Assembly: GCA_040880545.1 (NCBI GenBank)
Contig: JBBDIE010000175.1
Coordinates: 6,569-70,568, forward strand
Reading direction: 5' to 3'
Origin: Bacteroidales bacterium
GTDB lineage: Bacteria > Bacteroidota > Bacteroidia > Bacteroidales > GCA-2748055
Length of the DNA stretch: 64,000 bases
The notes under the pieces: generated by a model
Database searches by the model: none
Told to the model about the DNA's origin: nothing
What the model saw: the letters and a program-made list of their open reading frames with translations, nothing else
Shown here: positions 17,016 to 63,818 of the stretch, in pieces
Numbering within the stretch: position 1 is the first letter of the stretch
Layout: every line of letters begins with the position of its first letter
Position numbers and translations under genes: made by a program

Positions 17016-17108
17016 GTTTACTATATTGATTATTTTTTAATGTAATGATAAAAATGCAATATTAATTTTGAATTTGTACCTTGCTATTACCTGCCGTGTG
17101 ATATAATA

Positions 17109-18188: not shown

Positions 18189-18260
18189 ATTTATGGGTTG
18201 AATCTGTTTCCCCGGGAATTAAATGATTGTGGAAAATTATAATGAAGAAAATCGGTTGGA

Positions 18261-20442: not shown

Positions 20443-20476
20443 ATCTTTTTAAAAAGTAGAAGTTAGTTTGGAACGA

Positions 20477-21613: not shown

Positions 21614-21705
21614 GTACTACTCATTTTTGGTCAATGATTTTTAACATACAATTTGATTAAAAACCTGGCCTTGAAACCTTGGGTCAATTTGATGAATCAA
21701 GTGGG

Positions 21706-22695
21706 TCAACTAACTAAGCTTTTTTCTTCTTTTGATATCATTTGTTCCTTGATCCAATCGTATGTTTTTTTCATCCCGTCTTTTAAAGGATATATTGGCG
21801 CCCAATTTAAATATTTCTTAATCAGGGTATTTTCGCTGTTTCTGCCACGTACACCTTTCGGCGCATCCAAATCATAAGTTCGCTTAAGTTTGAATCCTGC
21901 GATATCTTCAACGATATCCACCAGTTCATTAATGGAAACCATTTCATCACTTCCCAGGTTGATTGGTTCTTCGATGTCGCTTTCCATTATTTTCAAGATA
22001 CCTTCAACACATTCATCGATATACATGAACGAACGGGTCTGTTCCCCGTCTCCCCATATTATGATTTCATCTTTTCCATACAATTCCCCTTCAATAATTT
22101 TACGGCACATTGCTGCAGGAGCCTTTTCACGACCGCCATCGTACGTTCCATGAGGACCGTAAACATTATGGAAACGGGCAACCCTGGTTGCTAATCCATA
22201 ATCTTCCATATAGTGACGGCACATTCGTTCGGAAAATAATTTTTCCCAACCATATCCGTCCTCTGCCATAGCAGGATATGCATCTGGTTCTTTTAATCCC
22301 GGATTGTTGGGGTCGGTTTGTTTCTCTGCGTTGTATACACAGGCTGATGAAGCATAAAAAAATCGCGTCACCCCCAGATCTTTAGCAGCCATTAACATGT
22401 GTGTATTTATAAGTACACTCAACATACACTCCGCTTTATGCGTTTCAATAAAGCCCATACCACCCATATCAGCCGCCAGATTATAAACTTCATTGTAACC
22501 ATTTACGGCTGTATAACAATTTTCTTTGACATTCAGGTCAAGCACAAGATTATCACAGCCGGAGTGAACCTGGTACCATTCAGTAAGCGGTTTTTTGTCC
22601 ACAGCACGAACGTGATGCCCCATATCGCTTAGTTTTCGAGCCAGATGCCCGGCTATAAAGCCACCCGCACCTGTTACAACAATTCTTTTTTGCAT
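21706..22695 (-). CDS. gme: GDP-mannose 3,5-epimerase homologue (extended SDR)
   Basis: Collinear similarity to plant GME as I recall it: VTGAGGFIAGH, NLAADMGGMGFI, RFFYASSACVY, YGWEKL, RFHNVYGP.GT..GGREKAPAA.CRK, WGDG.QTRSF.YIDECVEG, GSDEMVSINE, GVRGRNS.N.LIK..L.WAP. Confidence 0.85.
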   Translation of the reverse strand: MQKRIVVTGAGGFIAGHLARKLSDMGHHVRAVDKKPLTEWYQVHSGCDNLVLDLNVKENCYTAVNGYNEVYNLAADMGGMGFIETHKAECMLSVLINTHMLMAAKDLGVTRFFYASSACVYNAEKQTDPNNPGLKEPDAYPAMAEDGYGWEKLFSERMCRHYMEDYGLATRVARFHNVYGPHGTYDGGREKAPAAMCRKIIEGELYGKDEIIIWGDGEQTRSFMYIDECVEGILKIMESDIEEPINLGSDEMVSINELVDIVEDIAGFKLKRTYDLDAPKGVRGRNSENTLIKKYLNWAPIYPLKDGMKKTYDWIKEQMISKEEKSLVS

Positions 22696-22780
22696 GTTTT
22701 TTTCTTTATGTTTTTGACTTCCAGCACAAAGATGATTATTCTTAATGATTCATGCAACCATCTGAAATTATGAACTTTAT

Positions 22781-22835
22781 CGCAAAGGTTACCGCAAAGC
22801 TTTGCGGTAAATTAAAGATGTTACATAACATAAAA
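22781..22835. promoter_or_regulatory. Conserved bipartite palindromic element, copy 1 (candidate LacI-family operator plus second inverted repeat)
   Basis: Perfect 22-bp palindrome ttaccgcaaagctttgcggtaa (22789-22810), preceded by half-site cgcaaagg. 10 nt after GCGG comes atgtta-ca-taacat (22818-22831). About 95 bp upstream of the gme start. Confidence 0.5.
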
Positions 22836-22871: not shown

Positions 22872-25124
22872 CTACTCTTCAACGGTAAATCGCCAGATTT
22901 TTCCTTTGATTTTTTTTGTTCCCTGGATTACGTCCACCCGCCAAAAGTACGTTTCACAAAAATTCAGTTGATCCATTTCCAGAATATTGGAATCAAGGAC
23001 TCCCTGGTATTCATTACTTACGGGACTCGCTTCATTAACCGCTTTGTAACTATTTCCAAAGTACACTTCATGGCTGTCAGCTTTATATCCTTCTAACCAC
23101 ATTAAATCAGCATCTATATCAATTGAAATGGCTACGTTTGGTGGTATCGGATTAGAAGCTTGTTGTGATTGTCGTCCAGGAATCCAGTAATGTCCATTAT
23201 TAGTTTCGTATGGACCGATATCTGGTAAAACATTCCCTGTTTTTCCTGTAATTCCATCTATATAATAGCCTGCATCGTTTAATCTACTCTCTGTGGATAA
23301 TCGGAAATCCAGATTATCAGGATCACGGAGCTGCGACCTTACGTCACCGGTCCAGTTATTGGAATGTTTGCCGGGTAATCCATTTGAAGGGGATCTCAAA
23401 TTACTGGATATTTGGCCTGCCAGGTTATTCCTGGTAATACTGTTATCATTTTCTCCCGGATGATCAATTCCCGGCCCCCATCCCTGGTAATTAAAACCTT
23501 TCAGTGGATCTTTCGGGACCGGGTTTCCAACTGCAGAACGTATGGCTATATCATTCCTTAAATTGTCAAAGGAAAGATTGTGATACACTAACTGAGAATC
23601 TCCCTTTACATACATGGACCTGGTATCCCATACTACATTGTGGTGAATTGTACCTCCATGGGGAAAATCCCTGGCGCCTGCCAGGTATCCGATAAAAGAT
23701 CCGTCGAAACGTACCCCGTATTTCGGATCATCATCAAAACGACTAGCCTGGGCTGATTCATGTAACCAATTATATCTGATTACGGTTCCCGGTTGCGCCG
23801 ATCCACTGACCTGAATAAGCGCTCCATCTGATTGCAGGTACCCAATATCGAAAATATTATTATATTCTATCAGGTTTGCGGGACCGGATCTGTATCCAAC
23901 AGAGGCCCCTCCGGTATGGATCGTATTCCTACGAAATATAGTTTCGACCCCTTCTCCTCCATCTACAGTTACAGCATCTCCAACACAGCTGTAATTGATC
24001 TCATGGAAATAGCAATTTTCTATCAGGTTTCTTTCCCCCCTGATTTTCAGTCCTGTTCCATCGGTGTATGCAAACGTACAGTTCCGGAGTGTATTCTCTA
24101 TACCATCAATGGTTGTAACTTCTGGTTCCTCAGTAACCCCAAGCATTCTTTTGGAATAGCTCGGGTATTTAAAATCACAATCCTCTATGGAAACATGATT
24201 TGCGCTTTCGATATGAAATGTTGACCCAAAAAAGTGTAATCCTGATATTTTGAGATATTCGCTGTTTTCAAAATGCAGAGCATAAGTCAGTGTTTTGCCT
24301 CTGATATCCAGGTTTTCCGGCGATTCGTTATCAGATGGCCATATGTATAACTCCTTTGAGTCAGCCTGATACACCCATTCTGTGGCAGTATCCAACATGT
24401 TAAGGGAACCCTCAAAAAAGTACCATCCTGTCTCTTTTCTCATTTCCCAATAGACATCCTGTGCCAATCGATCCCAAAGATTTTTCTCATATGTAAATGT
24501 ATTGGATCCTTTCTTGTGACTGGTTACTCTTGTCGCAAAGGTATTCCATGCACCAATATTTAACATAACCAAAGCGTTGGTGAAGTCAACATCCGCTTGA
24601 GCCAGATCTCTGAAATCATGGTCATTGACCATTTTCCCATATTGCGATTGATCAGATTGATGGGCCCATGTTTTTTCCTGATCAAACATTGCCCCGTCCT
24701 TCCACTGTGCATTTGGCCAGCGGGCCGATATCATTGATTCGTTACCAACAAACAACTGCCAGATTTCATCGTTAAGACGAGTCTTAACGATATGTCCCTT
24801 ATGGGAATTCCAAACGCTTTTAATTTCCTTAGTACCATCAAGAATGACATGCTCATTATTAAAAGGGAGTATCGTAATTTGTTTATTTTCCAGACCTTTA
24901 AGATTCGAAATATGTACAGCTTCATGATATCTTCCTCCTCGCAGGTAACAAGTATCTCCTGCTTTTAATTGCTTCACAGCATGTTGGATCGTTTTAAATG
25001 GTTGCTCCAAACTTCCGGAGCCAGAATCGTCACCATTGGGGGCTACGTAATATTCCTTGCTATACAAATCGCTGGTGCCAACCAATATGATGCAGAGTAA
25101 AATAATTGAATACGACCTGGTCAT
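22872..25124 (-). CDS. Secreted right-handed parallel beta-helix protein (pectate-lyase-fold glycan-degrading enzyme candidate) with a C-terminal ~90-aa beta-sandwich-like domain
   Basis: Signal peptide. DUF1565-like start YYVAPNGDDSGSGSLEQPFKTIQHAVKQLKAGDTCYLRGGRY. Repeated beta-helix coils (NCTF..., NCYFH..., RNTIH...). C-terminal ...SHEVYFGNSYKAVNEA...TYFWRVDV...WRFTV. ATG at 25124 chosen. Confidence 0.7.
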   Translation of the reverse strand: MTRSYSIILLCIILVGTSDLYSKEYYVAPNGDDSGSGSLEQPFKTIQHAVKQLKAGDTCYLRGGRYHEAVHISNLKGLENKQITILPFNNEHVILDGTKEIKSVWNSHKGHIVKTRLNDEIWQLFVGNESMISARWPNAQWKDGAMFDQEKTWAHQSDQSQYGKMVNDHDFRDLAQADVDFTNALVMLNIGAWNTFATRVTSHKKGSNTFTYEKNLWDRLAQDVYWEMRKETGWYFFEGSLNMLDTATEWVYQADSKELYIWPSDNESPENLDIRGKTLTYALHFENSEYLKISGLHFFGSTFHIESANHVSIEDCDFKYPSYSKRMLGVTEEPEVTTIDGIENTLRNCTFAYTDGTGLKIRGERNLIENCYFHEINYSCVGDAVTVDGGEGVETIFRRNTIHTGGASVGYRSGPANLIEYNNIFDIGYLQSDGALIQVSGSAQPGTVIRYNWLHESAQASRFDDDPKYGVRFDGSFIGYLAGARDFPHGGTIHHNVVWDTRSMYVKGDSQLVYHNLSFDNLRNDIAIRSAVGNPVPKDPLKGFNYQGWGPGIDHPGENDNSITRNNLAGQISSNLRSPSNGLPGKHSNNWTGDVRSQLRDPDNLDFRLSTESRLNDAGYYIDGITGKTGNVLPDIGPYETNNGHYWIPGRQSQQASNPIPPNVAISIDIDADLMWLEGYKADSHEVYFGNSYKAVNEASPVSNEYQGVLDSNILEMDQLNFCETYFWRVDVIQGTKKIKGKIWRFTVEE

Positions 25125-25382
25125 AATTATATTTTTATTTGGTTTTATGCTAAAATTCAGACAACAGAACTCTAATTGAACTTTTTGGTTCATTTGCATT
25201 CCAAGGCTTTCCTGAATATTACATTGCGATAATTTAATCGCTGTGTAACTTAGAATTTTACTATTTTAAAATAAGAACTACCAAACACATTGATTGGAAT
25301 TTTCCGAGGGCTCAGCAGTTCTGATGTTAACTTGATTCGTTATATATTAATTGTCAATTTTTCTGAGAATAGATGGATATTG

Positions 25383-26909
25383 TTATTTCAGAATTAACTT
25401 TTGCGTTTCAGAATAACCTTCCCCCTTCATTCTCATGAGGTACATTCCATTTTCTAGATGTGTCAAATCTATTGTCTCTTTAAAGTAGTCGTTTGCCTGA
25501 AATTCTCTTGAGAGTATCTGGGCACCGGTGATACTAAATACTTCTAATCGTAATGTACCGATTTCATTTCCTGCGTATTCAATTGTTAAAATGCCCTGAC
25601 TGGGATTTGGATAAACTTGGGGTATAATTGAATGTGACAGCGGTATACTTGAAGTTCCTGTAAGTTGCCAACGTTGATCACCTAATTGAAGACCATCAGT
25701 GGCTGCTGTGGCAGATCTTAAATTCCTATCATATCCAAAATCAATATCGTTCAGGTCTTCCAATGCGTATTGATTTGGCGGAGACAGGGCTGCAATATCA
25801 AAATTGTTCTCAACCAGATACTGCCAGTATTCAAGATTAAGTGCCGGCGGACTGGTAAAATTAATTGCTTCACTAAAAAAATTAGTAGTATCAACCTGGG
25901 AATTTTCAATAAAAGCAAGGAAATTGGGAGGGGTCTCAGGATTGGCAGCAAGTACATCAGGGTCGGCGAAAATATTGGTACGTATATTGTACATTTCGTC
26001 AGATCTGAATTCTAACAATACATCTGAAATATCAGATTGTGTATGCCAATTATTGTTACTCAGATCGAAAGACCTCAGATTGTCATCCACCCCAATTGAA
26101 TCAACTGTAAAGAGCACATCGTGACTACCCGCCACTGCCAGGTATGCAAAATTATAGAATATATTATTTGTTACAATAGCCTTAACAGTCATTCCCAAAT
26201 CAAAATAGACATCATTTAAATAATTGGATTGATAATATGTATTGTGACTGAAGTTAAGCACATTTGTAACACTTGCCATTCTTAGGAAAAGCGGTCCGTC
26301 ACAATTATAAAAAGTAGTATTTTCAATGGATAAAGTATCCTGCGGCCTGGCAAGTGTATTGATGATGGAAGGAAAGCCCGGGTCCTCAAATACCAGACCA
26401 TTAATAAAAACTGAATTTGTCACATAAACTTTACTGCCATTACTTGTACGAATAAAGTCCTTTCCAACAAATTCGAAAACACAATCATCGACATTTAATC
26501 TCAGATCATTGTCTGCGAGCCGGATAGCTTGTACCAAAACGGTTGAATCCAGCGCTTTTTGATTAAACTTCAGTCCTTCCACTACTAGGTGTCCCGTTAC
26601 TTCGAAGTGTCTTTTGTAACTGTCATCTATGCCTACAATTACAGGCCGTGCACCATCTCCTTGCTCTGCCCTGATATGGAGCGTATTATCCAGGGAAGAA
26701 ATCTTATTGTTCAATACATAAGTACCTCCTCTTCGTAACTCAAAGATGGTGTTACCAGGATTATCTTCACTGTCAATAGCTATGTTAAGCGCACCTGCCT
26801 CACCTTCCAGATCCGGTTCTACAACTATTACCGTTTTTTGCCCAAAGGCTGGCAGGCACATTAAAAACAGTCCCATTGTTAAAAGCATGTAAATTTTTTT
26901 CATAATCAT
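25383..26909 (-). CDS. T9SS-sorted secreted protein with a beta-helix-like body
   Basis: Signal peptide MKKIYMLLTMGLFLMCLPAFGQ. C-terminal VYPNPSQGILTIEY...LEVFSITGAQIL...IDLTHLENGMYLMRMKGEGYSETQKLILK matches the type A Por/T9SS sorting domain pattern. Confidence 0.75.
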   Translation of the reverse strand: MIMKKIYMLLTMGLFLMCLPAFGQKTVIVVEPDLEGEAGALNIAIDSEDNPGNTIFELRRGGTYVLNNKISSLDNTLHIRAEQGDGARPVIVGIDDSYKRHFEVTGHLVVEGLKFNQKALDSTVLVQAIRLADNDLRLNVDDCVFEFVGKDFIRTSNGSKVYVTNSVFINGLVFEDPGFPSIINTLARPQDTLSIENTTFYNCDGPLFLRMASVTNVLNFSHNTYYQSNYLNDVYFDLGMTVKAIVTNNIFYNFAYLAVAGSHDVLFTVDSIGVDDNLRSFDLSNNNWHTQSDISDVLLEFRSDEMYNIRTNIFADPDVLAANPETPPNFLAFIENSQVDTTNFFSEAINFTSPPALNLEYWQYLVENNFDIAALSPPNQYALEDLNDIDFGYDRNLRSATAATDGLQLGDQRWQLTGTSSIPLSHSIIPQVYPNPSQGILTIEYAGNEIGTLRLEVFSITGAQILSREFQANDYFKETIDLTHLENGMYLMRMKGEGYSETQKLILK

Positions 26910-27115
26910 TTAGTTAAGTTTATAATCAAAGTCAAAAATGTCTGCATTGAATTTTTTACTTTTTAGTGGTTCAGTGTATATGTAGAATTCGCCTCCAATT
27001 TTTGAATAAATCCAGACTTAATATATTCGCGTGGATATATAGTTTTTGGAGCTGATTCATTATCAAATTTCGTTTATCTTTTCATTACTTACAACCTCAT
27101 TTTCAGTACTTTTCT

Positions 27116-27171
27116 CCGCAAAGCTTTGTGCAAAGCTTTGCGGAATTGAAAAGATGTTGAATAACATAAAA
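27116..27171. promoter_or_regulatory. Conserved bipartite palindromic element, copy 2
   Basis: ccgCAAAGCTTTGtgCAAAGCTTTGcgg (27116-27143). 10 nt later comes atgtt-gaat-aacat (27154-27167). About 205 bp upstream of the T9SS protein start. Confidence 0.5.
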
Positions 27172-52242: not shown

Positions 52243-54141
52243 CTAAAGATTATCAGTTTCCGGGGAGCCTGCCCATCCTGGATTTTGAACCAGGTTTGGA
52301 TTAATTCTTCTTTCTTCATCAGGAATTGGTAATAAGTACCATGAAGATTCGAAAGCCCTCTGCTGTTCTTCGAATTCGTAGGAAATTGTGGTGGGGCCCT
52401 CTGGTACGTCCCTGCTTAATACCGGTTTCAGAAATACAGCGGTTTGTTGCGATTCAACAGGTACTTTCCAACGTCGTATATCATAGAATATATGATCTTC
52501 AAAGTTCATCTCGACAATACGCTCCTGCCGAATTTCTTTCCGCATCTCTTCCTGAGAAAGGCCTGTTGGCATTAAGGGCATACTGTAGGTATTTCCCATA
52601 AATTCGGGATATGGCATACACTTGGTACGTTCACGAATCATATTAATTGCTTCAATGGCTGTCAGACCAATGCCAAGGGCGTCAACGTCAGGACCATAGG
52701 CTTCATTCATCGCTTCCGCATACATGAGCAGTACATCGGCATACCGTAAAAATATGAAATTATGATGTGCAGTTCCACCACTGTTGCCTTCTAATGGATT
52801 AATATCAAGATTAAGCTGCTTTATAGAATATAGATAAGTGTTATATTGCGACAACTGGGGGGCAGCATCTGCTGATGTTGTATTTTCACCCAACACCCAT
52901 GTTTGTTGAATCCTTCCCTGTCTAAGATCAGCACCGTTATAGCCTACATCCCTGTAAAAGCGCGGATCAAGGTTAACATAGGGATTTTGTAAGTCAAAGC
53001 CACCCACTGGATCATCTTGGTCATAGGCTTCTCCTCCATTTATAATCTTATAATATTTCATGATATTATAAGTCATCTGATTCTTGCCTCCTTTATTGCC
53101 ATTCCATGCCATGTTTGGAGGTAAATTTATATATTCCATTCTCCAGTGTTGTTCTCCGATCCGGTTAAAAATCACCTCTTCGTTTGTAAAAGTTATAAAT
53201 AGCTGGGAAATATCCTCAACGAGTGAATATTGATTAAGTTGAATAACGTCTGCAGCAGCTTCTGCAGCTTTTACCCACTTATCCGGATCATATTGCCCTC
53301 TGAATGGTGAATCGTTCGGTTTCTCAGGATTATTGGCCAGTGGGCTGGCAGAAAATAGTAAGGCTTGGGTTTTTAAGGCCAATGCTGTACCTTTTGTAGC
53401 TCGTCCCGTTTGGCTGCTACTCCATTCTAATGGCAAAAGTGCCGCGGCTTCATTACATAAATTAACGATAAACTCTACACATTCATCATATGTGTTTCGT
53501 TCCCCATTAACTTCTGGGTCGGTTGTTTTCAGTGCCTTGTCTACAATAGTAAAACCACCATAATTCTTAAGTAGATCCATGGAGTAAAATGCAACCAGAA
53601 ATGTTGCTTCGCCTAATTTCTGATCCTTCTGTGTTTGCCCAAACCCATACTCATCGTCTAAAGGAACATTTTTGATATTCTCGATAAATAACCAACAAGC
53701 ACGTATGGCGGCATAATCAAAGCGATAAAAATCGCCCATTCCGTTGGCATATTCTCTGTTATTGGTAGTATAATTATAAGATTCGGACCATTCACCCCGG
53801 TTGAATACAGCGGTAAATTGTTGTCCCGGGTCCATGGCTGTTGCTCCAAATGCAGAATAAGTATCTGCCAGTGCGCCTTGCTTCAACTTGCCGTTTGAGT
53901 TTACACTGGAAGGATCCATATAGAAAGGGAGCCGATCGTATAAATTACTAAGTACCTGATCAGCAAAACGGATATCGGAATAAGTTTTTTGTAAATCCAG
54001 ATCTCCGGTCTCCGGTTTTTCCAGTAAATCTGAAAAATCTTCACACGATATACACATTACCATGCTAAATCCCAGTAACATAAGTATTCTTAAATTTATC
54101 CTTTTCATAACAACTAGATTTAATAGTTTCTTGAAATTCAT
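52243..54141 (-). CDS. susD: SusD/RagB family nutrient-binding outer-membrane lipoprotein (pair 1)
   Basis: Lipobox MVMCISC (alternative ATG at 54108). SusD-like TPR body. C-terminal RRWK..., ...LLPIP..E...NPNLVQNPGW. Immediately downstream of a SusC gene. Confidence 0.9.
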   Translation of the reverse strand: MNFKKLLNLVVMKRINLRILMLLGFSMVMCISCEDFSDLLEKPETGDLDLQKTYSDIRFADQVLSNLYDRLPFYMDPSSVNSNGKLKQGALADTYSAFGATAMDPGQQFTAVFNRGEWSESYNYTTNNREYANGMGDFYRFDYAAIRACWLFIENIKNVPLDDEYGFGQTQKDQKLGEATFLVAFYSMDLLKNYGGFTIVDKALKTTDPEVNGERNTYDECVEFIVNLCNEAAALLPLEWSSSQTGRATKGTALALKTQALLFSASPLANNPEKPNDSPFRGQYDPDKWVKAAEAAADVIQLNQYSLVEDISQLFITFTNEEVIFNRIGEQHWRMEYINLPPNMAWNGNKGGKNQMTYNIMKYYKIINGGEAYDQDDPVGGFDLQNPYVNLDPRFYRDVGYNGADLRQGRIQQTWVLGENTTSADAAPQLSQYNTYLYSIKQLNLDINPLEGNSGGTAHHNFIFLRYADVLLMYAEAMNEAYGPDVDALGIGLTAIEAINMIRERTKCMPYPEFMGNTYSMPLMPTGLSQEEMRKEIRQERIVEMNFEDHIFYDIRRWKVPVESQQTAVFLKPVLSRDVPEGPTTISYEFEEQQRAFESSWYLLPIPDEERRINPNLVQNPGWAGSPETDNL

Positions 54142-54151: not shown

Positions 54152-57100
54152 TTAAAATCCAATGTTTAACCCTACACCATAAAAGCTGGTTTGTGGATAA
54201 ACAGATTCGTTACTGTACGTTCTTGGCATCTCAGGGTCAATCCATTTCCACTTGGATTTTGTAAAAGTGAGCACATTGCTTGCCATTAAAGTCACTTTCG
54301 CACTTTTAATATTCATTGGATTTAGTAAAGATTCAGGCAGTTGATAGGACAATTCTATATTTTTTAACCTGAGATAATCTGCCCTGAAAGTAGAGAATGT
54401 TGAATTTTTATTGGTCTCAGTACTTGCGCCGACTACTAATCTCGGATAAGTTGCGTTTTCTCTTGTATCAATTAATTCACCGGTATATGGGTCTTCATAA
54501 TATGCCCATCTTCCCAGATGCATCTCCTGTACTTTTGAATTATTATAGAATTCTTTTGACATTAGACTATCGAATGACCGGCTGAACCCACCGGCTCCCT
54601 GCCAGAACATAGTTAAGCCTAATCCTTTGTAAATAAACGTATAATTTAATCCGTAGATATATTCCGGCCGGTCAGTCATACCGATTGCACCCACATCAAA
54701 ATTGTCGATTACTCCGTCGTCATTTCGGTCAACAAACTTGAGATCGCCCGGATAAACGGGAGTTGTTGGAACTGGTACAGAAGGAGTAGCATCAGCCGGA
54801 AGTACGTATTTATTTGCACCTTCAACTAATTCATCCCACTGATACCCTAATTCTTCGAAAGTATAATATTCTCCATTCCAGGTATAACCGAATAATTGTC
54901 CAATTGATTTTCCTGTACGATTTTTATATTCCAGATCGTACTTAATTTCGTCGATATCAATGATTGTGTTAACAGCTCGTGAAAAATTACCATTTGCAAT
55001 AACAGAAAAGTCTCCAAAGTTTTTCCTAAGGGAGGCGGTTATTTCAAATCCCTCATTATTTACTTTTCCAAAGTTTTCTGGAGGTAGTTGATTTTGCTGG
55101 AGTCCGGTAACCTGTGTGAGTGTATTCCTGGTGGCCAGAATATTGGAACGTTTTTCAAAGAAGTAATCAAATCCCAAACTAATGAGGCCATTAAATATCT
55201 GCATATCGACACCGTAATTTTGCTTTTTGGCAATCTCCCAGCTTACATTCTCATTAGCCAGGGAAGATTCCACCAAAGTTGGATATGTATTGTACGCATC
55301 ACCAAAACTATAGTCCCGGCCCGGTTCAAAAATGGACAGATATAAGTACTGATAGTTCCCGATTTTGTCGTTTCCTGCTGTACCATAGGAACCTCTGATT
55401 TTGAAGAAGTTAATTACGGAAATATTTGACTTAAAGAAATTTTCTTCTGAAACTATCCAACCTGCGGAGAAAGCAGGGAACAGAGCATATCTTTCCTGTC
55501 TTTCGAATTGGGTAGAACCATTATATCCTAAATTTGCTTCGGCCAGGTATCTGTGTTTAAAAGCGTAGGTTACCCTTCCGGCAAAACCAAGATGTGCTGT
55601 CCATGGATTGGCATTACGCGATTTTTTATCCTGGTTGTACAAAGCAAGCCCAGTTACTTTATGGGCACCAAATGTACGATCATATGTAAGCGCAGCTTCA
55701 ACGTATGGATTATTCCGGGTACCGTAGTTAAGTGTCCTGTACCGGGGTAGTTCTGCTTGTTGCATTTGGGTATAGGTATCTGTTGCAGGATTGTATTTAT
55801 AGGTCCCCGGTTCTGCAAGGATTCTGAATTCATAATCCATCGCCGTATTAATACCAGATTTAACTCTGAATGCCAGCCCTTCTGTGATAAAATCCAATTT
55901 CTGTTTGAAATTCAACATGGCATAAAGGCTCTGATCCTTTTCAGTCTGGCTGGAGCCCCTCCGTAGGTTTCCGTACGCACTGTTTTCATCCATGTCCGAT
56001 GCACCAATAGATCCGTTTGGATTAATCAATGCTGTCAGGTTTGGTGGTTCCATGATTACAGTTCGCCACATTCCATAACCATCGGAAGCACCCTGGGGGA
56101 TATTACGCGTATCCTGAATTCTTCCATTTAGATTTACACCAAGTTCAGTGGTTTTTGTTAACTGAAAATCGAAATTCATCCTTAAATTAAATCGATTATA
56201 GCCTGCATTGGTACTGTAATCTGTTTCGTCCCATTGCCTGTATGCACCTTCCTGTGATAAAAACTCACCACCAACAAAATACTTTACTTGCTCGGTTCCC
56301 CCACGTAGGCTAATATTATACCGTTGTTCTGGGGCGTAGGGTGCAACCACCTCTTCAAACCAATCAATATCAGGGTGGGTGTAGGGTGAATCCCCTGTTC
56401 TGTAATGTTCAAGATCCTCCTCTGTGTAAAAAGGATTGTTCCCCACATTTATTAAGGCCTCATTATATAAACGGGCATGATCGTAAGATCCCAGGAAATT
56501 CGGGAAATTGATTATTTTATGCAAACGATACTGTCCGTTAACGTCAATTTCAGGTTTTCCTGAGTATCCTCGTTTGGTGGTAATCAATATGACACCATTT
56601 GCCCCTCGCACACCATAAACAGCCGTTGCTGAAGCATCCTTCAGGACAGAAAATGATTCAATATCATTCGGATTAATTCTACTAAGACTACCTTCCATTC
56701 CATCAATCAGGATCAGCGGAGAGCTGTCATTTATGGTACTTACCCCCCGAATGGACATAATCGGATCATCAGCACCTGGCCTTCCTTCTCCCATTTTAAT
56801 AATCAGACCTGAGACTCTACCTGCAAGTGAATTCGAAAGGTTTGAGGTGGCAATATCGGTAAGATCTTCACTATCAACACTCGATATGGCACCCACTACG
56901 CTAATCTTCTGTTGTGTTCCATAACCGACAACTACTACCTCTTCCAGATCTTCGGCCGTACTTTCCATTGTAATTTCCAGATTAGTCTGGTTACCAATAA
57001 TTTGATGTTGCGTAGCATAACCTATAAAAGAAATGACCAGAACACTTTCCGGACCATCAATATTAATTGAAAAATTCCCGTTACTATCGGTTATTGTGCC

Positions 57101-57250
57101 TCTTGTTGTTCCTTCAAGAACTACTGTGGCTCCTGGAACTATTTCACCGTTTTCATCCTGTACAAATCCAGTGATCTGTCTTTGTTGTGCATTTAAAGTC
57201 AGTATTGTTGCACAAATCAGTAATGTAAATAATATTGTTTTTTTCATCAT
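54152..57250 (-). CDS. susC: SusC/RagA family TonB-dependent transporter (pair 1)
   Basis: 1032 aa. Carboxypeptidase-regulatory-like start ITGFVQDENGEIVPGATVVLEG, plug (VVVGYGTQQK, IRGVSTIN), C-terminal ...GVGLNIGF. No STN domain seen. Confidence 0.93.
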   Translation of the reverse strand: MMKKTILFTLLICATILTLNAQQRQITGFVQDENGEIVPGATVVLEGTTRGTITDSNGNFSINIDGPESVLVISFIGYATQHQIIGNQTNLEITMESTAEDLEEVVVVGYGTQQKISVVGAISSVDSEDLTDIATSNLSNSLAGRVSGLIIKMGEGRPGADDPIMSIRGVSTINDSSPLILIDGMEGSLSRINPNDIESFSVLKDASATAVYGVRGANGVILITTKRGYSGKPEIDVNGQYRLHKIINFPNFLGSYDHARLYNEALINVGNNPFYTEEDLEHYRTGDSPYTHPDIDWFEEVVAPYAPEQRYNISLRGGTEQVKYFVGGEFLSQEGAYRQWDETDYSTNAGYNRFNLRMNFDFQLTKTTELGVNLNGRIQDTRNIPQGASDGYGMWRTVIMEPPNLTALINPNGSIGASDMDENSAYGNLRRGSSQTEKDQSLYAMLNFKQKLDFITEGLAFRVKSGINTAMDYEFRILAEPGTYKYNPATDTYTQMQQAELPRYRTLNYGTRNNPYVEAALTYDRTFGAHKVTGLALYNQDKKSRNANPWTAHLGFAGRVTYAFKHRYLAEANLGYNGSTQFERQERYALFPAFSAGWIVSEENFFKSNISVINFFKIRGSYGTAGNDKIGNYQYLYLSIFEPGRDYSFGDAYNTYPTLVESSLANENVSWEIAKKQNYGVDMQIFNGLISLGFDYFFEKRSNILATRNTLTQVTGLQQNQLPPENFGKVNNEGFEITASLRKNFGDFSVIANGNFSRAVNTIIDIDEIKYDLEYKNRTGKSIGQLFGYTWNGEYYTFEELGYQWDELVEGANKYVLPADATPSVPVPTTPVYPGDLKFVDRNDDGVIDNFDVGAIGMTDRPEYIYGLNYTFIYKGLGLTMFWQGAGGFSRSFDSLMSKEFYNNSKVQEMHLGRWAYYEDPYTGELIDTRENATYPRLVVGASTETNKNSTFSTFRADYLRLKNIELSYQLPESLLNPMNIKSAKVTLMASNVLTFTKSKWKWIDPEMPRTYSNESVYPQTSFYGVGLNIGF

Positions 57251-57298: not shown

Positions 57299-58963
57299 TT
57301 ACCACCCAGCGTTTTGCTGTAAACTACTGTTTCTGTTTATTTCACTCTGGGGTAGCGGGTAGAGGTTCATTTCCGGCCTGAATACCCTGCTTTGGGCAAC
57401 TTTAGGTTCATATGTAAATGTTGAATCATTGATAGCTGTAATTTTCAATCCATTTACAGGTTGTCCTAGTACAGTACCTGCTAATTTCCATCGACGTAAA
57501 TCCAGATGCCGGTGTTCTTCAAAAGCAAGTTCTATACGCCGCTCTTCCTGGATTATTGCTCGCATCTCTTCTTGAGTCAATCCGGTAGGGAGTGGTGGTA
57601 ATTGTACCCTGTTACGGACCTCATTTACTGCACTTAATGCACTCATTCCAAATGACTCCTCTGTTTCCGGGCCATAAGCCTCATTCATTGCTTCAGCAAA
57701 GTTCAGCAATATTTCAGCATATCTGATATGAGGGAAACAGTGATAAGTAGCACCCGAAGACCCGCCAAACCATTGTGCATCCTCAGACATAAATTTTTTC
57801 AGGTAAAAACCGGTTTTGGTGGAATTTACATTTCCTAAATCCTTACCTCCCTGAAAGGTTTCTATGGTACTACCCATCCAGGAGGCTCCATTATAAAGGA
57901 CTGATGCATAAAAACGTGGTTCACGGTCCTGGAATGGATTTTCAGCATGTACCGGGTTGTCCCAATCAAACAAGGAGCCATCACTCATCTTATATGCATC
58001 GACGAGATCAAGACTGGGACATGAACCACCCATGCCATCTGTAAAACCAGTTGGCCCGTTAAGTCTTTCCACATCATTATTGCGTGAGGTCATTTTACTG
58101 AAAATAATCTCATCGTTACCCGACAGCGTAGTGAAGAATCCTTCATAATCGTTGAATAGCTGATAGGTATTCAAATTAATTACATCATAAGCAGCCTGTG
58201 CCGCGTCCTGCCACTTTCCGGCGTCATAGGCCCCATGTTCTACTGTACTTTCAGAATTCAATGGATCATTAAATAGCGGACTGGCCGCATAGAGTAAAGT
58301 ACGTGACTTTAAGGCCAGTGCTGCTCCTTTGGTGGCCCTGCCAAAATTAGTGGCATTGCTTTGCCAGATATCTGGTAAAATGGCTGCAGCATTATCGCAT
58401 TCGTCAACAATAAATTGAATACAATCTTCATAACTGTCCCTTTCCATCCCGGCACCTTCACCAATTTCGAGAACTTCAGTAATTATGGGAACTCCTCCAT
58501 ATCTTTTGACCAGTTCAAAGTAGAAAAACGCACGTAAAAAGTAAGTTTGTCCCAACAGAAGCTCAATAGTCCGGTCGCTTACAAAAAGGCCTTCGGGTAC
58601 CTGCGGGTGTAAATCATTCAGGAAAATATTTGTTTTCCTAATTGCAGCATAGGAACTGCTCCATGCATCATCCCGTGGTGAAGATGCTGACCAGGCACCG
58701 GTTGCCATAAATTCGGCTTCAGTATAATTTCCGCTTGCCACCGCTTCGTCTGTGGTTGATGCAATCATAGAATTTCCATCTAGTCGGTTATAACCATCTG
58801 GTAAAGCAGCATACATATCATTTACAAGACCAATGACATATATTGAATCGGACATTACATCATCTATATCATAATAATCCACCGGCATATCATGTATTGA
58901 GGTTTCACATGAATTACCAAATATGAAGGTGGCAATGATTAAACTATAAATTATCTTTTTCAT
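57299..58963 (-). CDS. susD: SusD/RagB family nutrient-binding outer-membrane lipoprotein (pair 2)
   Basis: Lipobox FIFGNSC. SusD-like body. RRIELAFEEHRHLDLRRWK, ...YPLPQSEINRNSSLQQNAGW. Confidence 0.9.
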   Translation of the reverse strand: MKKIIYSLIIATFIFGNSCETSIHDMPVDYYDIDDVMSDSIYVIGLVNDMYAALPDGYNRLDGNSMIASTTDEAVASGNYTEAEFMATGAWSASSPRDDAWSSSYAAIRKTNIFLNDLHPQVPEGLFVSDRTIELLLGQTYFLRAFFYFELVKRYGGVPIITEVLEIGEGAGMERDSYEDCIQFIVDECDNAAAILPDIWQSNATNFGRATKGAALALKSRTLLYAASPLFNDPLNSESTVEHGAYDAGKWQDAAQAAYDVINLNTYQLFNDYEGFFTTLSGNDEIIFSKMTSRNNDVERLNGPTGFTDGMGGSCPSLDLVDAYKMSDGSLFDWDNPVHAENPFQDREPRFYASVLYNGASWMGSTIETFQGGKDLGNVNSTKTGFYLKKFMSEDAQWFGGSSGATYHCFPHIRYAEILLNFAEAMNEAYGPETEESFGMSALSAVNEVRNRVQLPPLPTGLTQEEMRAIIQEERRIELAFEEHRHLDLRRWKLAGTVLGQPVNGLKITAINDSTFTYEPKVAQSRVFRPEMNLYPLPQSEINRNSSLQQNAGW

Positions 58964-58981: not shown

Positions 58982-61900
58982 TTAGAAACTCAAATTAATT
59001 CCGCCGGTGTATAACCGTGGAATAGGATAGCTGGTTCCATTGGTATTCCCAGCAGGGTCGAACATTGTAACTTTTGACACAGAAAACAGGTTACTACCGT
59101 TTACAAAAAGCCGCAAACTCTGCAATCCCAGCCTGTTTATAATTGATTGTGGCAGGGTAAAGCCAAGTTGGATCGACCTTAGTCGTAAGAAACTACCATC
59201 TTCCAACCAGAAATCACTGGTAACTTTGTTATTTTGAAAATTGGAATTTGATAAACTGGGATAAGTTGCATTTTGCTCATTTCCTGGTTGCCAGCGATCA
59301 AGGTGCCATTCATTCACTGAACCTTTTCCGTTATTTATGGCATACGCCAGATCGCCAGAGTAGCGAACCGTTCGGTTGGCTACGCCTGAAAATTGAAAAT
59401 TAAAATCAAAGGATTTGAATTCAAAACCTCCTGAAAAGCCATACCAGAGTTCAGGAAAATCTCCATGCCCTAAATAGGAAATATCTCTTTCATCAATAAT
59501 ATTATCGTTGTTCAGATCCTTATATTTTAGGGAGCCGGGAATAACAGAACCGATGGAAGATTGATCAGACAGTGCACTGAAATCATCGTTCTCTGTAAAA
59601 AAACGATCAAAACTGTAGCCGTATCTTGATCCAATTGGATTGCCGGTCCTATAGAGCCATTCATATTCACGTGCCTCTTCGTTTTGAGCTATAATTTCAT
59701 TACGTGCATACGTACCGTTGGCTGAGAGATAAAAACTCATATCAGAACCAATCTGCTGATTCCAGGAGAACATACCTTCTACTCCACTATTAACAACGAT
59801 CCCGTCAGGATATAAATATTCCATTCCAAGGATTCCGGGTGTACCTCCCACAAGAATATCATCCGTTCTTTCAAAGAAATAATCTGCAGAAAAAATTAAT
59901 CTGGCATCAAAAAATGATGCATCCAAACCAATATCATATTTCTTGGTTTTGGACCAGGTTATCATGTCATTGGCACCTGCAACTTCACCAAAGCGGGGAA
60001 CGGAAGTACCCAGATCTGGCCCTAACTGGTAGCTTCCACTCTGTTCGAATCTTCCTATATATGCAAAATAGGCAGAACTGGTAAAGGAATCAAAATCATT
60101 TCCATTAATGCCGGCGGAACTTCTTAATTTTAAATAACTAATGAAGTCCGTATTATCCATGAAGGCCTCATTTGAAATAACCCAGCCCAATGATAGTGCA
60201 GGAAAAAGTCCATATCGATTATCCGGTGGAAATTGCTCTGATCCCTGGAATGAAAATGCGAATGTTGCAAAATAGGTTGACCCCAGGCCATAATCCAATC
60301 GACCTTTAAATCCTTGGTACCAGTGCGGAATACGTGCCACGCTTCTCTCAACCATTCTCCTTTCTGCTAAGAGTTTACCGTCAAGTGTAGATTCACCAAA
60401 AGTTGTAGTGTAACTTAATCCAACTTCAGATTCAAAATAGCGGTTGACATTCTCGGTTGTGCTGCGATTAAGCATCTCAGTATCATCGCCAATTTTATTT
60501 AGTGTAGCTAAACCTTCCTGATATTCATAAACGGCAAATGATTTTGAACGGTCAATTATATTGTCTCCAAAGGTGTTATATCCAAAGGAACCTATAACTG
60601 ATAAGCCTTCTACAAAATCCAGATCATAAGTAAAATCAATAAATCCAGATAAATAATACCTTTCCCAGAAAGAATATCCAGCTCTGTTTAACTGACCATA
60701 GAAATTATTCCGGTAATCCGCAGTCCCACCCAGCGAATCTTCAACTGCGAAAGTGGGGTAGGCATTTGGCGGAGTAGCCAACATCTGATTAAGATAGGTC
60801 GATACTCCGTTGCTGCTATAACTGCCAGGCTGTGTACGTTTATCCTTTTTTGCTTTTATATCAACATTTACATTTAGTTTATTGGTTACCTGTATTCCGA
60901 TATTACCATGAAGATTGATGGCATTTAATTCCGTATTTGTATTGTATGCATTTTCAGCTTCGATTGTATTCATTAATCCATCATTGTAGAGATGTCCCAG
61001 TGAAAATATATAGTTTGCATTTTTTCCACCTCCGGAAATATTCAGGTTATTCCTGGTCTGCATAAATGAATCATCGAAATAATCGCTGATGTAGTTATTG
61101 TTTGGATGACTGAGGGGACTACTTCCATTTCTGAAAGTTTCAATATCTCCGGAAGAATATAAGGGTGGCTGTCCATCATTTATTAATGCTTCATTGTATA
61201 ATTCGGCATAGGTACCGGCACCCAATGTTTGCGGAAATTTAGCTGAATTAGAAATCGAAGTTTGTGAATTCAGGTTCACTTTTAAATCTCCTTCTCGTCC
61301 TCTTTTAGTATTGACCAGAATTACACCATTGCCTCCTCTTAATCCATACATGGCTGTTGATGCAGCATCTTTCAGAACAGTTATGCTTTCAATATCATAG
61401 GGATTCAAGAGGGTAATATCTGCTTCATGCCCGTCCACCAAAATTGTGGCGCCGCTTCTAAGCTCTCCAAATGTATTTCTGCCCCGGATACTTATGGTAA
61501 CATCTTCCTTACCTGGTTGTCCATCCGATTGCATGACTAGTAAACCAGGCAGACGACCCTCAAGAGTGGTCAGTCGATTTGTTCCGGGTAAATCCTCAAT
61601 TTCGCTGCCTGATATATAAGATACTGCCTCGCTGATTTCATTAGCTTCTTTGACCATATTTAGTAAGATCACTTCGTCAGTTGCCGCTGAAATTAACACA
61701 ACACTATCCTGTTTTAATGTTTCAGGGTTGATGGAAATTGAATTATAGCCAGATTTACTAATGGTAAGCAAATCACCGCATAATTCAGAATTGATTTCAA
61801 ATTTTCCGTTGGCATCGGTTACAGCATGCTTATCACAATATGTAATCTGCGCATTTTCAATGAGTTGGTGGTTTTCGTCGATAACAACGCCACCTATTTG

Positions 61901-61987
61901 ATTACCAATTGCATTAGCTTTACAAGTAACTGTCAAAATGACAAGCCAGATAAAATTAAGTGCGAATTTAGTCTTAAGTTTTTTCAT
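58982..61987 (-). CDS. susC: SusC/RagA family TonB-dependent transporter (pair 2)
   Basis: 1001 aa. IGGVVIDENHQLIENAQITY, plug region (SIRGRNTFG, VLKDAASTAMYGLRGGNGVILVNTKRG), C-terminal ...GGINLSF. Confidence 0.93.
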   Translation of the reverse strand: MKKLKTKFALNFIWLVILTVTCKANAIGNQIGGVVIDENHQLIENAQITYCDKHAVTDANGKFEINSELCGDLLTISKSGYNSISINPETLKQDSVVLISAATDEVILLNMVKEANEISEAVSYISGSEIEDLPGTNRLTTLEGRLPGLLVMQSDGQPGKEDVTISIRGRNTFGELRSGATILVDGHEADITLLNPYDIESITVLKDAASTAMYGLRGGNGVILVNTKRGREGDLKVNLNSQTSISNSAKFPQTLGAGTYAELYNEALINDGQPPLYSSGDIETFRNGSSPLSHPNNNYISDYFDDSFMQTRNNLNISGGGKNANYIFSLGHLYNDGLMNTIEAENAYNTNTELNAINLHGNIGIQVTNKLNVNVDIKAKKDKRTQPGSYSSNGVSTYLNQMLATPPNAYPTFAVEDSLGGTADYRNNFYGQLNRAGYSFWERYYLSGFIDFTYDLDFVEGLSVIGSFGYNTFGDNIIDRSKSFAVYEYQEGLATLNKIGDDTEMLNRSTTENVNRYFESEVGLSYTTTFGESTLDGKLLAERRMVERSVARIPHWYQGFKGRLDYGLGSTYFATFAFSFQGSEQFPPDNRYGLFPALSLGWVISNEAFMDNTDFISYLKLRSSAGINGNDFDSFTSSAYFAYIGRFEQSGSYQLGPDLGTSVPRFGEVAGANDMITWSKTKKYDIGLDASFFDARLIFSADYFFERTDDILVGGTPGILGMEYLYPDGIVVNSGVEGMFSWNQQIGSDMSFYLSANGTYARNEIIAQNEEAREYEWLYRTGNPIGSRYGYSFDRFFTENDDFSALSDQSSIGSVIPGSLKYKDLNNDNIIDERDISYLGHGDFPELWYGFSGGFEFKSFDFNFQFSGVANRTVRYSGDLAYAINNGKGSVNEWHLDRWQPGNEQNATYPSLSNSNFQNNKVTSDFWLEDGSFLRLRSIQLGFTLPQSIINRLGLQSLRLFVNGSNLFSVSKVTMFDPAGNTNGTSYPIPRLYTGGINLSF

Positions 61988-62061
61988 AGATTTAAGGTTT
62001 ACTAGATGACTTCCCTAATTGTAGTAGTTCAAATTATTGATGGTCAATAACTATTTCAGCG

Positions 62062-62090
62062 AAAACATTCAATATATAATTGAATGTTTT
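62062..62090. promoter_or_regulatory. 29-bp inverted repeat upstream of susC (pair 2)
   Basis: aaaacattcaat-atata-attgaatgtttt (12-bp arms), 75-100 bp upstream of the SusC ATG at 61987. Confidence 0.35.
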
Positions 62091-62523
62091 GGACCGAATA
62101 GCAAAATTTATTTTTTTTAAAATGATTTCATATTTATTACCATTTATTTCCTCCCCCTGGTGAATATGATTGATGCAATTTATCGCTAAATCTCATTAAT
62201 TCTTATAGAAATACAGTGAACCTGCTATCTAATGTATTTGACCTGATTTGGTAAACGGAATCGAAAAAAGTTGGGAATTAACTTATGATCAGAAAAATTT
62301 ATATACTCTTCTTGATAATTTCTATTTTGGGCTACCCCAATCAGAATTTATATAACAGATAGGTATAATTCATGTAAATTTTCAAGTTTTAGGATTTAAA
62401 AATTTCAAAGAACGATAAATTTTGTTGGTGAGAGCAGACGATTGTTTACATCTGTTAAATTAATTCTCATCCAAATATCGAGAAACTTTATTTAAATACA
62501 AATCGCTGATTTATTGTAATATA

Positions 62524-62580
62524 CCGCAAAGCTTTCCGCAAAGCTTTGCGTTAATAAAAACATGTTGAAAAACATAAAAA
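62524..62580. promoter_or_regulatory. Conserved bipartite palindromic element, copy 3 (in the susC / lacI-family divergent region)
   Basis: ccgCAAAGCTTTccgCAAAGCTTTGcg (62524-62550). 10 nt later comes atgtt-gaaa-aacat (62562-62575). About 215 bp upstream of the regulator ATG and about 540 bp upstream of susC. Confidence 0.5.
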
Positions 62581-62761: not shown

Positions 62762-62769
62762 TAAATTTG
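62762..62769 (+). promoter_or_regulatory. Possible Bacteroidota -7 promoter box (TAnnTTTG) for the LacI-family gene
   Basis: TAAATTTG lies 24 nt upstream of the ATG at 62793. No well-spaced -33 TTTG is present, so this is weak. Confidence 0.3.
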
Positions 62770-62792: not shown

Positions 62793-63818
62793 ATGGGGAA
62801 GAGACATGTTTCATTAAAGGATATGGCAAGTGAATTGGGAGTATCAATTTCTACGGTTTCCAGAGCACTAAAAAATCATCCGGACATTAGTCCTGAACTT
62901 TCAGCGAGGATTCAAAAACTTGCTATTGAAAGAAATTACTCTCCAAACCCCTTGGCAATGGGTCTGCTCAGGCAGCAAACCAAAATGATAGGTATTATAG
63001 TTCCCGATATTGTCACTCATTTTTTTGCATCAATTATTGCAGGGATAGAATCGGTAGCTGCTGAAAAGGGATATTACATTGTCATTGCTTCTTCTAACGA
63101 ATCATATCAAAAGGAGGTTGAATCAGTTAAAAACCTGCTAAAAACCCGGGTTGAAGGTTTAATAGTATGCCTGAGCCAAGAGACAAAAGAATTCGGTCAT
63201 TTTGAAAGCTTAATAAACAATGAAATGCCGTTGGTATTTTTTGACAGAATATGTGAATCATTAGAGACCCCCTCTGTTACAGTTGATGGAGTAGAAGCGG
63301 TTAGGAACATAATACGCCATTTTAAAGAAAATGGATGCAAACGCATAGCCTATATTTCAGGACCAAGTTACCTGAATATATCAAAAAACAGGAAAGAAGG
63401 ATACCTTAAGGGTTTGAAGGAAAGTGGACTTAAATTCTACCCTGAGATGCTTGTACAATGTGATTTAAGTGCGAAAGATGCTACTTTAGCTACCCGTAAA
63501 CTATTAAATTCACAGGCTAAGCCAGATGCCATTTTTGGGATAAATGATACTGTAGCATTCGCCGCCATGAAGGAAATAAAAAAACATGGATTGAAAATTC
63601 CCGATGATATTGCCTTGATAGGTTTCACTGACGAGTTTCATTCCACGGTTGTGGATCCTGCATTAACCTCGGTCACACACCCGACCATTCAGATGGGTGA
63701 GGAATCGGCCCGACTTTTCTTTAAATGGATTGAAATAGGTACTTCCTTTACCGAACGGGTTGTATTACCAACCGAGTTGGTTATTAGAGAGTCATCTGTA
63801 AAGTCAACACCTTCATAA
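62793..63818 (+). CDS. LacI/PurR family transcriptional regulator
   Basis: HTH: VSLKDMASELGVSISTVSRALKNHPDISPELSARIQKLAIERNYSPNPLAMGL. Periplasmic-binding-protein-like sugar-binding core (IGIIVPDI..., VEGLIV, IAYISGP, PDAIFGINDTVA, IPDDIALIGFTD). ATG at 62793 preferred over the TTG at 62709. Confidence 0.9.
   Translation: MGKRHVSLKDMASELGVSISTVSRALKNHPDISPELSARIQKLAIERNYSPNPLAMGLLRQQTKMIGIIVPDIVTHFFASIIAGIESVAAEKGYYIVIASSNESYQKEVESVKNLLKTRVEGLIVCLSQETKEFGHFESLINNEMPLVFFDRICESLETPSVTVDGVEAVRNIIRHFKENGCKRIAYISGPSYLNISKNRKEGYLKGLKESGLKFYPEMLVQCDLSAKDATLATRKLLNSQAKPDAIFGINDTVAFAAMKEIKKHGLKIPDDIALIGFTDEFHSTVVDPALTSVTHPTIQMGEESARLFFKWIEIGTSFTERVVLPTELVIRESSVKSTPS

Follow-up and report, generated by a model that had tools for sequence, protein, structure and literature searches.

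The window analysed here is a 64,000-nt stretch of Bacteroidales bacterium contig JBBDIE010000175.1 (assembly GCA_040880545.1, forward-strand positions 6,569 to 70,568). Its minus strand carries a fucoidan-type polysaccharide utilization locus (PUL), a short unit encoding a protein sorted by the type IX secretion system (T9SS) together with a beta-helix protein, and an operon containing gme (GDP-mannose 3,5-epimerase homolog, GME) and fucP; a LacI-family regulator gene is divergent from the PUL. A ~55-nt element stands in front of each of the three minus-strand units. This element is a genuine promoter module, conserved in one family, Prolixibacteraceae. It is probably a composite of a LacI-type operator and a site for Cur, the Crp-family protein BT4338 of Bacteroides, placed upstream of three minus-strand promoters that form one fucose/fucoidan regulon. 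Coordinates of all features are given in Table 1.

Structure of the module

Three copies in a single orientation had been reported in the first-pass annotation of the window, and sequence inspection and pattern searching located them on the same strand at 22781-22835, 27116-27171 and 62524-62580. Each copy consists of a weaker second box, a main box, a 10-nt A-rich spacer, the palindrome ATGTT-N4-AACAT and the tetranucleotide AAAA. The main box GCAAAGCTTTGC is exact in all three copies, with CC or GT flanking it on one side and GG or GT on the other. In copy 1 it lies within CCGCAAAGCTTTGCGG, a perfect 16-bp palindrome with a GC centre; copies 2 and 3 retain 14 of these 16 positions, and no copy departs from the 12-bp core. 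The two box cores had been annotated as 13 nt apart with three intervening bases. Both boxes are indeed present, the second being degenerate in copy 1, but the second box begins 12 nt to the left of the main box, with two intervening bases (CAAAGCTTTG-N2-CAAAGCTTTG). The distance from GCGG or GCGT to ATGTT is exactly 10 nt in 3/3 copies, as annotated, and ATGTT-N4-AACAT is exact in each, lies within A-rich flanks and is followed by AAAA. Sequence on either side of the module is unrelated among the copies, and the chance expectation for the composite in 64 kb is ~2e-9 copies.

The copies lie upstream of the starts of transcription units, at distances that agree with the annotation: 98 nt from the main box of copy 1 to the gme start (22695), 207 nt from the module to the start of a 508-aa gene (26909) and 537 nt to the susC start (61987). 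The gene behind copy 2 had been described as a T9SS beta-helix gene; it encodes a 508-aa T9SS protein without a detectable beta-helix, and the 775-aa beta-helix gene is the next one. Copy 3 is divergent from the 341-aa LacI-family gene, with 213 nt between the module and the LacI ATG (62793), and all three target units are on the minus strand.

Distribution and conservation

A strict composite pattern (23 specified bases) was scanned against a genome collection of 596 Gb representing 185,579 species genomes. The scan returned 31 loci (~0.02 expected by chance), all in Prolixibacteraceae or closely related Bacteroidia metagenome-assembled genomes (MAGs), at 1-3 per assembly and in genera including Mariniphaga, Tangfeifania, Draconibacterium, Maribellus and Prolixibacter. 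The same pattern had no match in 2.9 million viral contigs. Oriented as in the window, nearly all occurrences have a leftward gene starting 80-120 nt left of the main box, and ~20 of 34 have a gene for a LacI ortholog (~338 aa) that begins 40-160 nt right of the module.

Among these instances the main box hardly varies. The second-box position is conserved as CCGCAAAG(G/C)TTT in the 21 two-box instances and varies to the non-self-complementary AAAGGTTT. Spacing from box to palindrome, measured from the 12-nt box, is 12 nt in 42 of 45 instances. The sole departures, with spacers of 10-11 nt, are second modules in FucP-GME loci that carry tandem GCAAAGGTTTGC boxes (L013 3570-3620; L021 2623-2670; L025, reverse, ~282). 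At one further locus (L010, ~5274-5400) tandem GAAA(A)ATTGA-like units (gaaaaattgagaaattgaaaaattgagaaattg...) directly follow the ATGTT-N4-AACAT palindrome, an arrangement unseen in the other loci.

The LacI-family regulator and its candidate operator

LacI-family proteins encoded beside the module are 56-80% identical to the window regulator and form one ortholog group. The best NCBIfam score of the regulator is for CytR, below the cut-off, and the protein is not closer to PurR than to CcpA, CytR or RbsR. For an independent test, loci were fetched by the LacI protein alone, the motif not being used, and box and palindrome were then searched separately. All nine Prolixibacteraceae loci with a box within 450 nt upstream of the gene (9/9) also had the second palindrome, at an offset of exactly 24 nt from the start of the box; at some other LacI-fetched loci the module was farther off or outside the fetched DNA. 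Six Parabacteroides orthologs (loci L048-L053; ~50% identity, same helix-turn-helix (HTH)) carry one box only (ACGCAAACGTTTGCGT or ACGCAAAGGTTTGCGT); it lies ~90-270 nt before the LacI gene, in the divergent region shared by this gene and an aldo-keto reductase / amidohydrolase-2 / major facilitator superfamily (MFS) operon. No ATGTT-N4-AACAT was found at these six loci, even at three mismatches. Since the box accompanies the Parabacteroides ortholog and the palindrome does not, the box appears to go with the LacI protein and the second palindrome to be a separate element. The annotation had proposed the boxes as operators of the LacI-family gene, and their co-occurrence with one ortholog group, which they follow into Parabacteroides as ACGCAAACGTTTGCGT, supports the GCAAAGCTTTGC box as the candidate operator of the adjacent regulator.

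The central dinucleotide of the box differs within the ortholog group: it is GC in Prolixibacteraceae, CG (ACGCAAACGTTTGCGT) at L050 (P. gordonii), L051 and L052, and GG (ACGCAAAGGTTTGCGT) in P. goldsteinii, P. segnis and P. faecis. The HTH sequence SLKDLAxELGVS(I/V)STVSRAL is conserved in both groups and the hinge helix differs (PLAMGLL in Prolixibacteraceae, PFALSLL in Parabacteroides), a difference that may be tied to that of the central dinucleotide (GC as against CG or GG).

In a survey of LacI-family regulons, even-palindrome motifs had a central CG in 1173 of 1251 cases, another pair in 49 and a degenerate centre in 29; overlapping sites ~13 bp apart recurred at 110 operons, and 72% of the regulators were autoregulated (PMC4052901). 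Set against these figures, the GC centre would be a minority variant and the 12-nt double box a known arrangement. To judge by its supplementary alignments, in which neither GCAAACG nor CGTTTGC occurs, the 2013 paper on Bacteroides regulons does not describe this operator.

The second palindrome

The annotation had taken the second inverted repeat as a sign of a second factor, and the repeat does match a published motif, that of Cur. The consensus wwwTATGTTnTAnAACATAwww was found beside local-regulator sites of the Bacteroides ara, xyl and fuc operons and assigned to the Crp-family protein BT4338; the accompanying regulon table lists fucRIAKUP under 'FucR, Crp' and uxuRBA under 'UxuR (LacI family), Crp' (Ravcheev et al., PMC3878776). 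Chromatin immunoprecipitation placed BT4338 at the ara and fuc promoters, and a 22-bp deletion of CCTTATGTTACATAACATTGTT upstream of fusA2 abolished both BT4338 binding and activation (Townsend et al., PMC6989115). BT4338 was later named Cur; four Bacteroides species need it to grow on fucose, and it does not use cAMP (PMC10294740). In the window, the arms of the consensus are exact in all copies and the central TA and outer T/A are partly kept; the copy 1 palindrome ATGTTACATAACAT is identical to the 14-nt core of the validated B. thetaiotaomicron fusA2 site. Given the motif match, this identity and the control of fucose genes by Cur, the second palindrome is best read as a Cur-type (Crp-family) site.

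The cognate gene was sought with BT4338, recovered from B. thetaiotaomicron by way of a published primer. The tblastn search found nothing in the window or the fetched loci, no Cur gene was among the window open reading frames (ORFs) scanned, and a genome search for loci related to BT4338 gave only Bacteroides and Mediterranea among the matches listed. Environmental Bacteroidales MAGs commonly encode full-length Cur homologs (44-56% identity); the labels of these read Bacteroidaceae, Prevotellaceae, Paludibacteraceae or just 'Bacteroidales bacterium', and none is tied to Prolixibacteraceae.

Predicted promoter geometry

In 19 of 21 modules of the two-box class, a -7-like box (nAnnTTTG; background frequency 0.8% per position) starts at an offset of 70-71 nt, counted from the main box's first base. 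All three window copies are among these, which supports the annotated promoter position. In these instances a TTG is found at offset 47-48, 19-20 nt from the -7 box. This pair and its spacing fit the Bacteroidetes promoter TTTG / TAnnTTTG, reportedly described by Bayley and coworkers in 2000. In the single-box class, which comprises FucP-like promoters, the -7-like box is at offset 48-50 in 13 of 14 instances. The centres of the main box and of the Cur-type palindrome, 25 bp apart, are ~65 bp and ~90 bp from the -7 box in the two-box class and ~43.5 bp and ~68.5 bp from it in the single-box class, an offset of ~21.5 bp, or two helical turns. The -7 boxes of the LacI gene itself lie on the other side of the module at distances varying from 24 to 136 nt. 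With the distance fixed on one side and variable on the other, the module would belong to the catabolic promoter.

The predicted promoter of copy 3 is separated from the susC start by an AT-rich leader of ~480 nt (61988-62471, minus strand) whose single minus-strand ORF has 21 aa (62405-62470); this interval is either a long leader or the place of a second, unrecognised promoter. Readings of the boxes as -7 elements themselves (AAGCTTTG) or as a sigma-54-like element were dropped in view of the far better conserved -33/-7 pair 47 and 70 nt downstream. A sigma-70 promoter scan was uninformative for Bacteroidetes promoters.

Genes behind the module

Genes following the module in other genomes were classed by blastp against Pfam-checked representatives. 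First genes were GME (x6), FucP-like MFS permeases of two types (x12), aldo-keto reductase (x6), esterase-like (x3) and GH97 (x1); second genes were the 378-aa nucleotidyltransferase (x6), RhaM (x3), amidohydrolase-2 (x3), GME (x2) and aldo-keto reductase (x3), and a lactonase was also among the genes that follow. The annotation had joined the nucleotide-sugar operon and the PUL in one putative regulon, and the recurrence of GME, FucP-like and aldo-keto reductase genes behind the module, followed by the 378-aa nucleotidyltransferase, RhaM and lactonase, makes this a reasonable step. The module genes are thus supported, by gene content, as a putative regulon for uptake and catabolism of fucose and L-galactose, to which the window organism would add the PUL and the T9SS unit.

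The window GME homolog matches plant GME at E 1e-103. In the 378-aa protein, only an N-terminal cytidylyl/adenylyltransferase-like domain was detected; in other genomes, no pair of targets of the regulator is better conserved than GME and the gene of this protein. The operon as a whole looks like a catabolic or salvage route through GDP-sugars, conceivably from L-galactose or L-fucose to GDP-mannose. A search of the literature on GME in catabolism or PULs gave nothing relevant, and no such GDP-sugar route was found described there. The minus-strand fucose cluster ends at a tRNA gene (15523-15606, plus strand) directly beyond fucP.

Encoded in the PUL are two SusC/SusD pairs (58982-61987 with 57299-58963; 54152-57250 with 52243-54141), at least eight sulfatases, three GH29 fucosidases, two GH10-like proteins, a second beta-helix protein, an RraA-like aldolase and a purple-acid-phosphatase-like protein. 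A fucoidan PUL would normally be expected under a hybrid two-component system (HTCS), SusR or extracytoplasmic function (ECF) sigma regulator. No HTCS, SusR or ECF/anti-sigma gene was found among the window ORFs scanned with Pfam and NCBIfam, a scan that covered all but a few of the ORFs of at least 100 aa.

Table 1. Module copies, predicted promoters and genes in the window (positions are those of the window)
Feature	Position	Strand	Basis or content
Copy 1, second (promoter-proximal) LacI-type box GCAAAGGTTACC, degenerate	22782-22793	-	12 nt from main box
Copy 1, main LacI-type operator CCGCAAAGCTTTGCGG (candidate)	22792-22807, core 22794-22805	-	core invariant in nearly all 42 listed module instances
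Copy 1, Cur/Crp-type palindrome ATGTTACATAACAT and AAAA	22818-22835	-	motif match
Copy 2, second LacI-type box GCAAAGCTTTGT	27118-27129	-	sequence
Copy 2, main LacI-type operator GTGCAAAGCTTTGCGG (candidate)	27128-27143, core 27130-27141	-	sequence
Copy 2, Cur/Crp-type palindrome ATGTTGAATAACAT and AAAA	27154-27171	-	motif match
Copy 3, second LacI-type box GCAAAGCTTTCC	62526-62537	-	sequence
Copy 3, main LacI-type operator CCGCAAAGCTTTGCGT (candidate)	62536-62551, core 62538-62549	-	sequence
Copy 3, Cur/Crp-type palindrome ATGTTGAAAAACAT	62562-62579 with AAAA; A-run to 62580	-	motif match
Predicted gme-operon core promoter: -33-like TTGC 22757-22754, -7-like CATCTTTG 22734-22727	22727-22757	-	inferred from consensus boxes
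Predicted -7 box GAAATTTG of the T9SS-protein/beta-helix unit	27064-27071	-	consensus box
Predicted PUL core promoter: -33 TTTG 62502-62499, -7 GATATTTG 62479-62472	62472-62502	-	consensus boxes
LacI-family regulator, 341 aa, proposed binder of GCAAAGCTTTGC boxes; own -7 box TAAATTTG at 62762-62769	62793-63818	+	domain scans, gene position
Target unit 1: operon of six genes	15714-22695	-	GDP-mannose 3,5-epimerase homolog, 378-aa nucleotidyltransferase-like, RhaM-like mutarotase, GH29 fucosidase, ManC-like guanylyltransferase, FucP
Target unit 2: 508-aa T9SS-sorted protein and 775-aa beta-helix protein	22872-26909	-	domain scans
Target unit 3: fucoidan-type PUL	27352-61987	-	domain scans

Proposed mechanism and its alternatives

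The LacI-family regulator would be the local regulator of L-fucose/L-galactose use in Prolixibacteraceae, and the weaker box 12 nt nearer the gene would belong to the same operator set as CCGCAAAGCTTTGCGG. Under carbon limitation, a Cur-like protein would activate the module promoters; as long as no inducer derived from fucose is present, the LacI-type protein would occupy the DNA between Cur and the core promoter and prevent this activation, and on binding the inducer it would leave. The fucoidan PUL, the secreted-enzyme unit and the fucose/GDP-sugar operon would then be switched together, under substrate-specific and global control. Because the LacI-type boxes are upstream of the predicted core promoter and would stand between the Cur-type activator site and RNA polymerase, simple occlusion does not suggest itself as the mechanism, and a repressor acting as an anti-activator, interfering with Cur-dependent activation, is favoured. 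A stronger form of this proposal, that a dedicated nucleoprotein complex is formed in which the LacI-type fucose regulator contacts or masks the Cur-type activator, with no blocking of RNA polymerase, and that anti-activation like that of CytR and CRP evolved independently in Bacteroidota, here to govern a fucoidan PUL, is put forward tentatively, as a less probable reading. It draws on the invariant 10-nt spacer and on the fixed phase upstream of the -33/-7 pair, with the two promoter classes two helical turns apart.

Several points weigh against the composite operator and Cur-type module as described. The operator centre is GC and not the CG typical of the LacI family. At ~100 bp before the start, a Crp-type site is distant for direct activation, and the LacI protein could itself be an activator and not a repressor. 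All promoter positions are predictions from consensus boxes, and within the ~480 nt between the copy 3 promoter and susC another promoter may lie. The window, which derives from a sediment metagenome, matched only DNA-type sediment and soil metagenome runs, no RNA-only search having been made. A Cur ortholog has not been demonstrated in Prolixibacteraceae, protein-search matches being dominated by Bacteroides and close relatives, and no Cur-like site independent of a LacI box was found in the window or in ~0.49 Mb of loci, a sample biased by having been fetched via the module or the LacI gene.

The main rival to repression is that the LacI-family protein would itself activate in a fucose-dependent manner, either unaided or with a Crp-type protein, from its upstream, phase-fixed position. 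Cra/FruR and CcpA activate from sites upstream of promoters. In both promoter classes, which are ~21.5 bp (two helical turns) apart, the predicted -33 element is downstream of the boxes, and the single Parabacteroides box, as read from the sequences, is ~60 bp upstream of -7-like boxes on both sides. However, the overwhelming majority of LacI-family local sugar regulators are repressors, the large share of autoregulation in the family (72%) matching what is seen here (PMC4052901), and the second box of the two-box class reaches within ~24 nt of the -33 element; we consider an activator unlikely. Doubt may also attach to the protein at ATGTT-N4-AACAT, which could be another Crp/Fnr-family member or an unrelated dimer specific to Prolixibacteraceae, or the palindrome could reflect a second DNA-reading mode of the LacI complex. 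In keeping with this, no Cur ortholog is demonstrated in the family, the palindrome centres are GTGG, GAAA and similar where the consensus has nTAn, every ATGTT-N4-AACAT in the fetched Prolixibacteraceae DNA adjoins a LacI-type box (bar one inside a gene), and the invariant 10-nt spacer would also suit a single nucleoprotein complex. Yet the 5+5 arms, 4-nt gap and A/T flanks equal those of the published motif, copy 1 has the validated fusA2 core and Cur controls fucose genes in Bacteroides; the Parabacteroides orthologs, with the same HTH and no palindrome, argue that the LacI protein does not need it. A binder other than Cur is accordingly judged decidedly improbable.

Readings in which the element is not a promoter module fare worse. 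As an RNA-level element, it would be a hairpin terminator, attenuator or processing site within one long minus-strand transcript. Copies 1 and 2 do lie between same-strand genes, 37-180 nt past a stop codon, and the boxes fold as stable hairpins on either strand (z-scores down to -6.7), but hairpins are trivial for palindromes, no covariation was seen, and what is conserved is sequence and not pairing. No U-tract follows the hairpin on either strand, a terminator scan found nothing at the modules, and an Rfam scan of the window brought only the tRNA to gathering score. The single-box class is without a long hairpin, and the module also occurs in divergent intergenic regions beside the LacI gene, where a read-through transcript is not expected; its position upstream of predicted starts, at a fixed distance to the -33/-7 pair, likewise makes an RNA element very improbable. 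A dispersed repeat of the repetitive extragenic palindromic (REP) or miniature inverted-repeat transposable element (MITE) kind, with no gene-specific role, might be suggested by three near-identical copies within 40 kb, and scatter of the REP type was a concern raised in the first-pass annotation. The genome-wide search disposes of it: with 1-3 copies per genome, in one family, and none in viral contigs, the module is not REP-like. Orientation to the downstream gene and distance to the promoter boxes are always the same, and the copies have unrelated flanks, with no terminal repeats or target duplications, so that a dispersed repeat is scarcely credible.

Comparison with known systems

The candidate operator shares with the E. 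coli PurR box (ACGCAAACGTTTGCGT-type) and with LacI/GalR operators the even 16-bp palindrome, the GCAAA/TTTGC half-sites and a place next to a LacI-family gene, on its upstream side; ACGCAAACGTTTGCGT itself is found with Parabacteroides orthologs of the window regulator. An overlapping second site ~12-13 bp away is likewise a known pattern of the family (PMC4052901). A swapped centre had been annotated as the sole difference from the PurR box. The centre does differ (GC, not CG), but so do the outermost bases (CCG..CGG vs ACG..CGT). The module also differs from PurR sites in that its regulon would serve fucose and fucoidan, not purine synthesis, and in that it lies upstream of the predicted core promoter and not over it.

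Agreement with Bacteroides Cur sites extends to the ATGTT-N4-AACAT arms, the A/T-rich flanks, a location upstream of sugar and fucose genes and the adjacent local-regulator site (fuc, ara, xyl, uxu). The module differs in occurring in Prolixibacteraceae, where the cognate protein is not demonstrated, in keeping the central TA and outer T/A only in part, and in its invariant spacing to the local operator, which is not described for Bacteroides. The fucRIAKUP operon of B. thetaiotaomicron is similar in having a local fucose-responsive regulator in addition to Cur control of fucose genes; FucR, however, belongs to the GntR family and uses a different operator, and fucRIAKUP encodes an isomerase, kinase and aldolase where the module has an aldo-keto reductase, lactonase, GME and nucleotidyltransferases.

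The combination of LacI-family and Crp-family sites in one promoter, giving specific and global control, is familiar from the E. coli CytR-CRP promoters (deoP2, cdd, tsx) and from lac (CAP and LacI). As in the CytR-CRP promoters, the LacI-type site is upstream of the core promoter and next to a Crp-type site. CytR sits between two CRP sites, whereas each module has one Crp-type palindrome, distal to the LacI-type boxes, and none has a LacI-family site flanked by tandem Crp-type sites, the arrangement looked for as a mark of anti-activation. CytR also needs protein-protein contact with CRP, and the likeness of the module to it is an analogy of layout only.

Significance

Local LacI-type operators, Cur-type sites and the presence of both at one promoter are already known in Bacteroides, and the module is a fairly ordinary kind of regulatory element in this respect. 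New are this LacI ortholog group with its GC-centred candidate operator, the occurrence of the Cur-type motif in Prolixibacteraceae as well, the invariant spacing together with a phase-fixed upstream position, and the inclusion of a fucoidan PUL and a GME operon in the putative regulon. Within one ortholog group, the central dinucleotide of the operator appears to have drifted (CG, GG, GC) alongside changes of the hinge helix, and the operator, inducer and fixed-spacing architecture could serve inducible expression tools in Bacteroidota.

For the window organism, the finding places a cytoplasmic LacI-type regulator before a large, sulfatase-rich PUL. For Prolixibacteraceae, a family of sediments and the sea in which hardly anything is known of regulation, it provides a testable fucoidan/L-fucose regulon and names the likely local regulator and its operator. 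It further suggests that the Cur-type global carbohydrate control of gut Bacteroides reaches a distant environmental family, where it would keep its DNA motif and its link to fucose.

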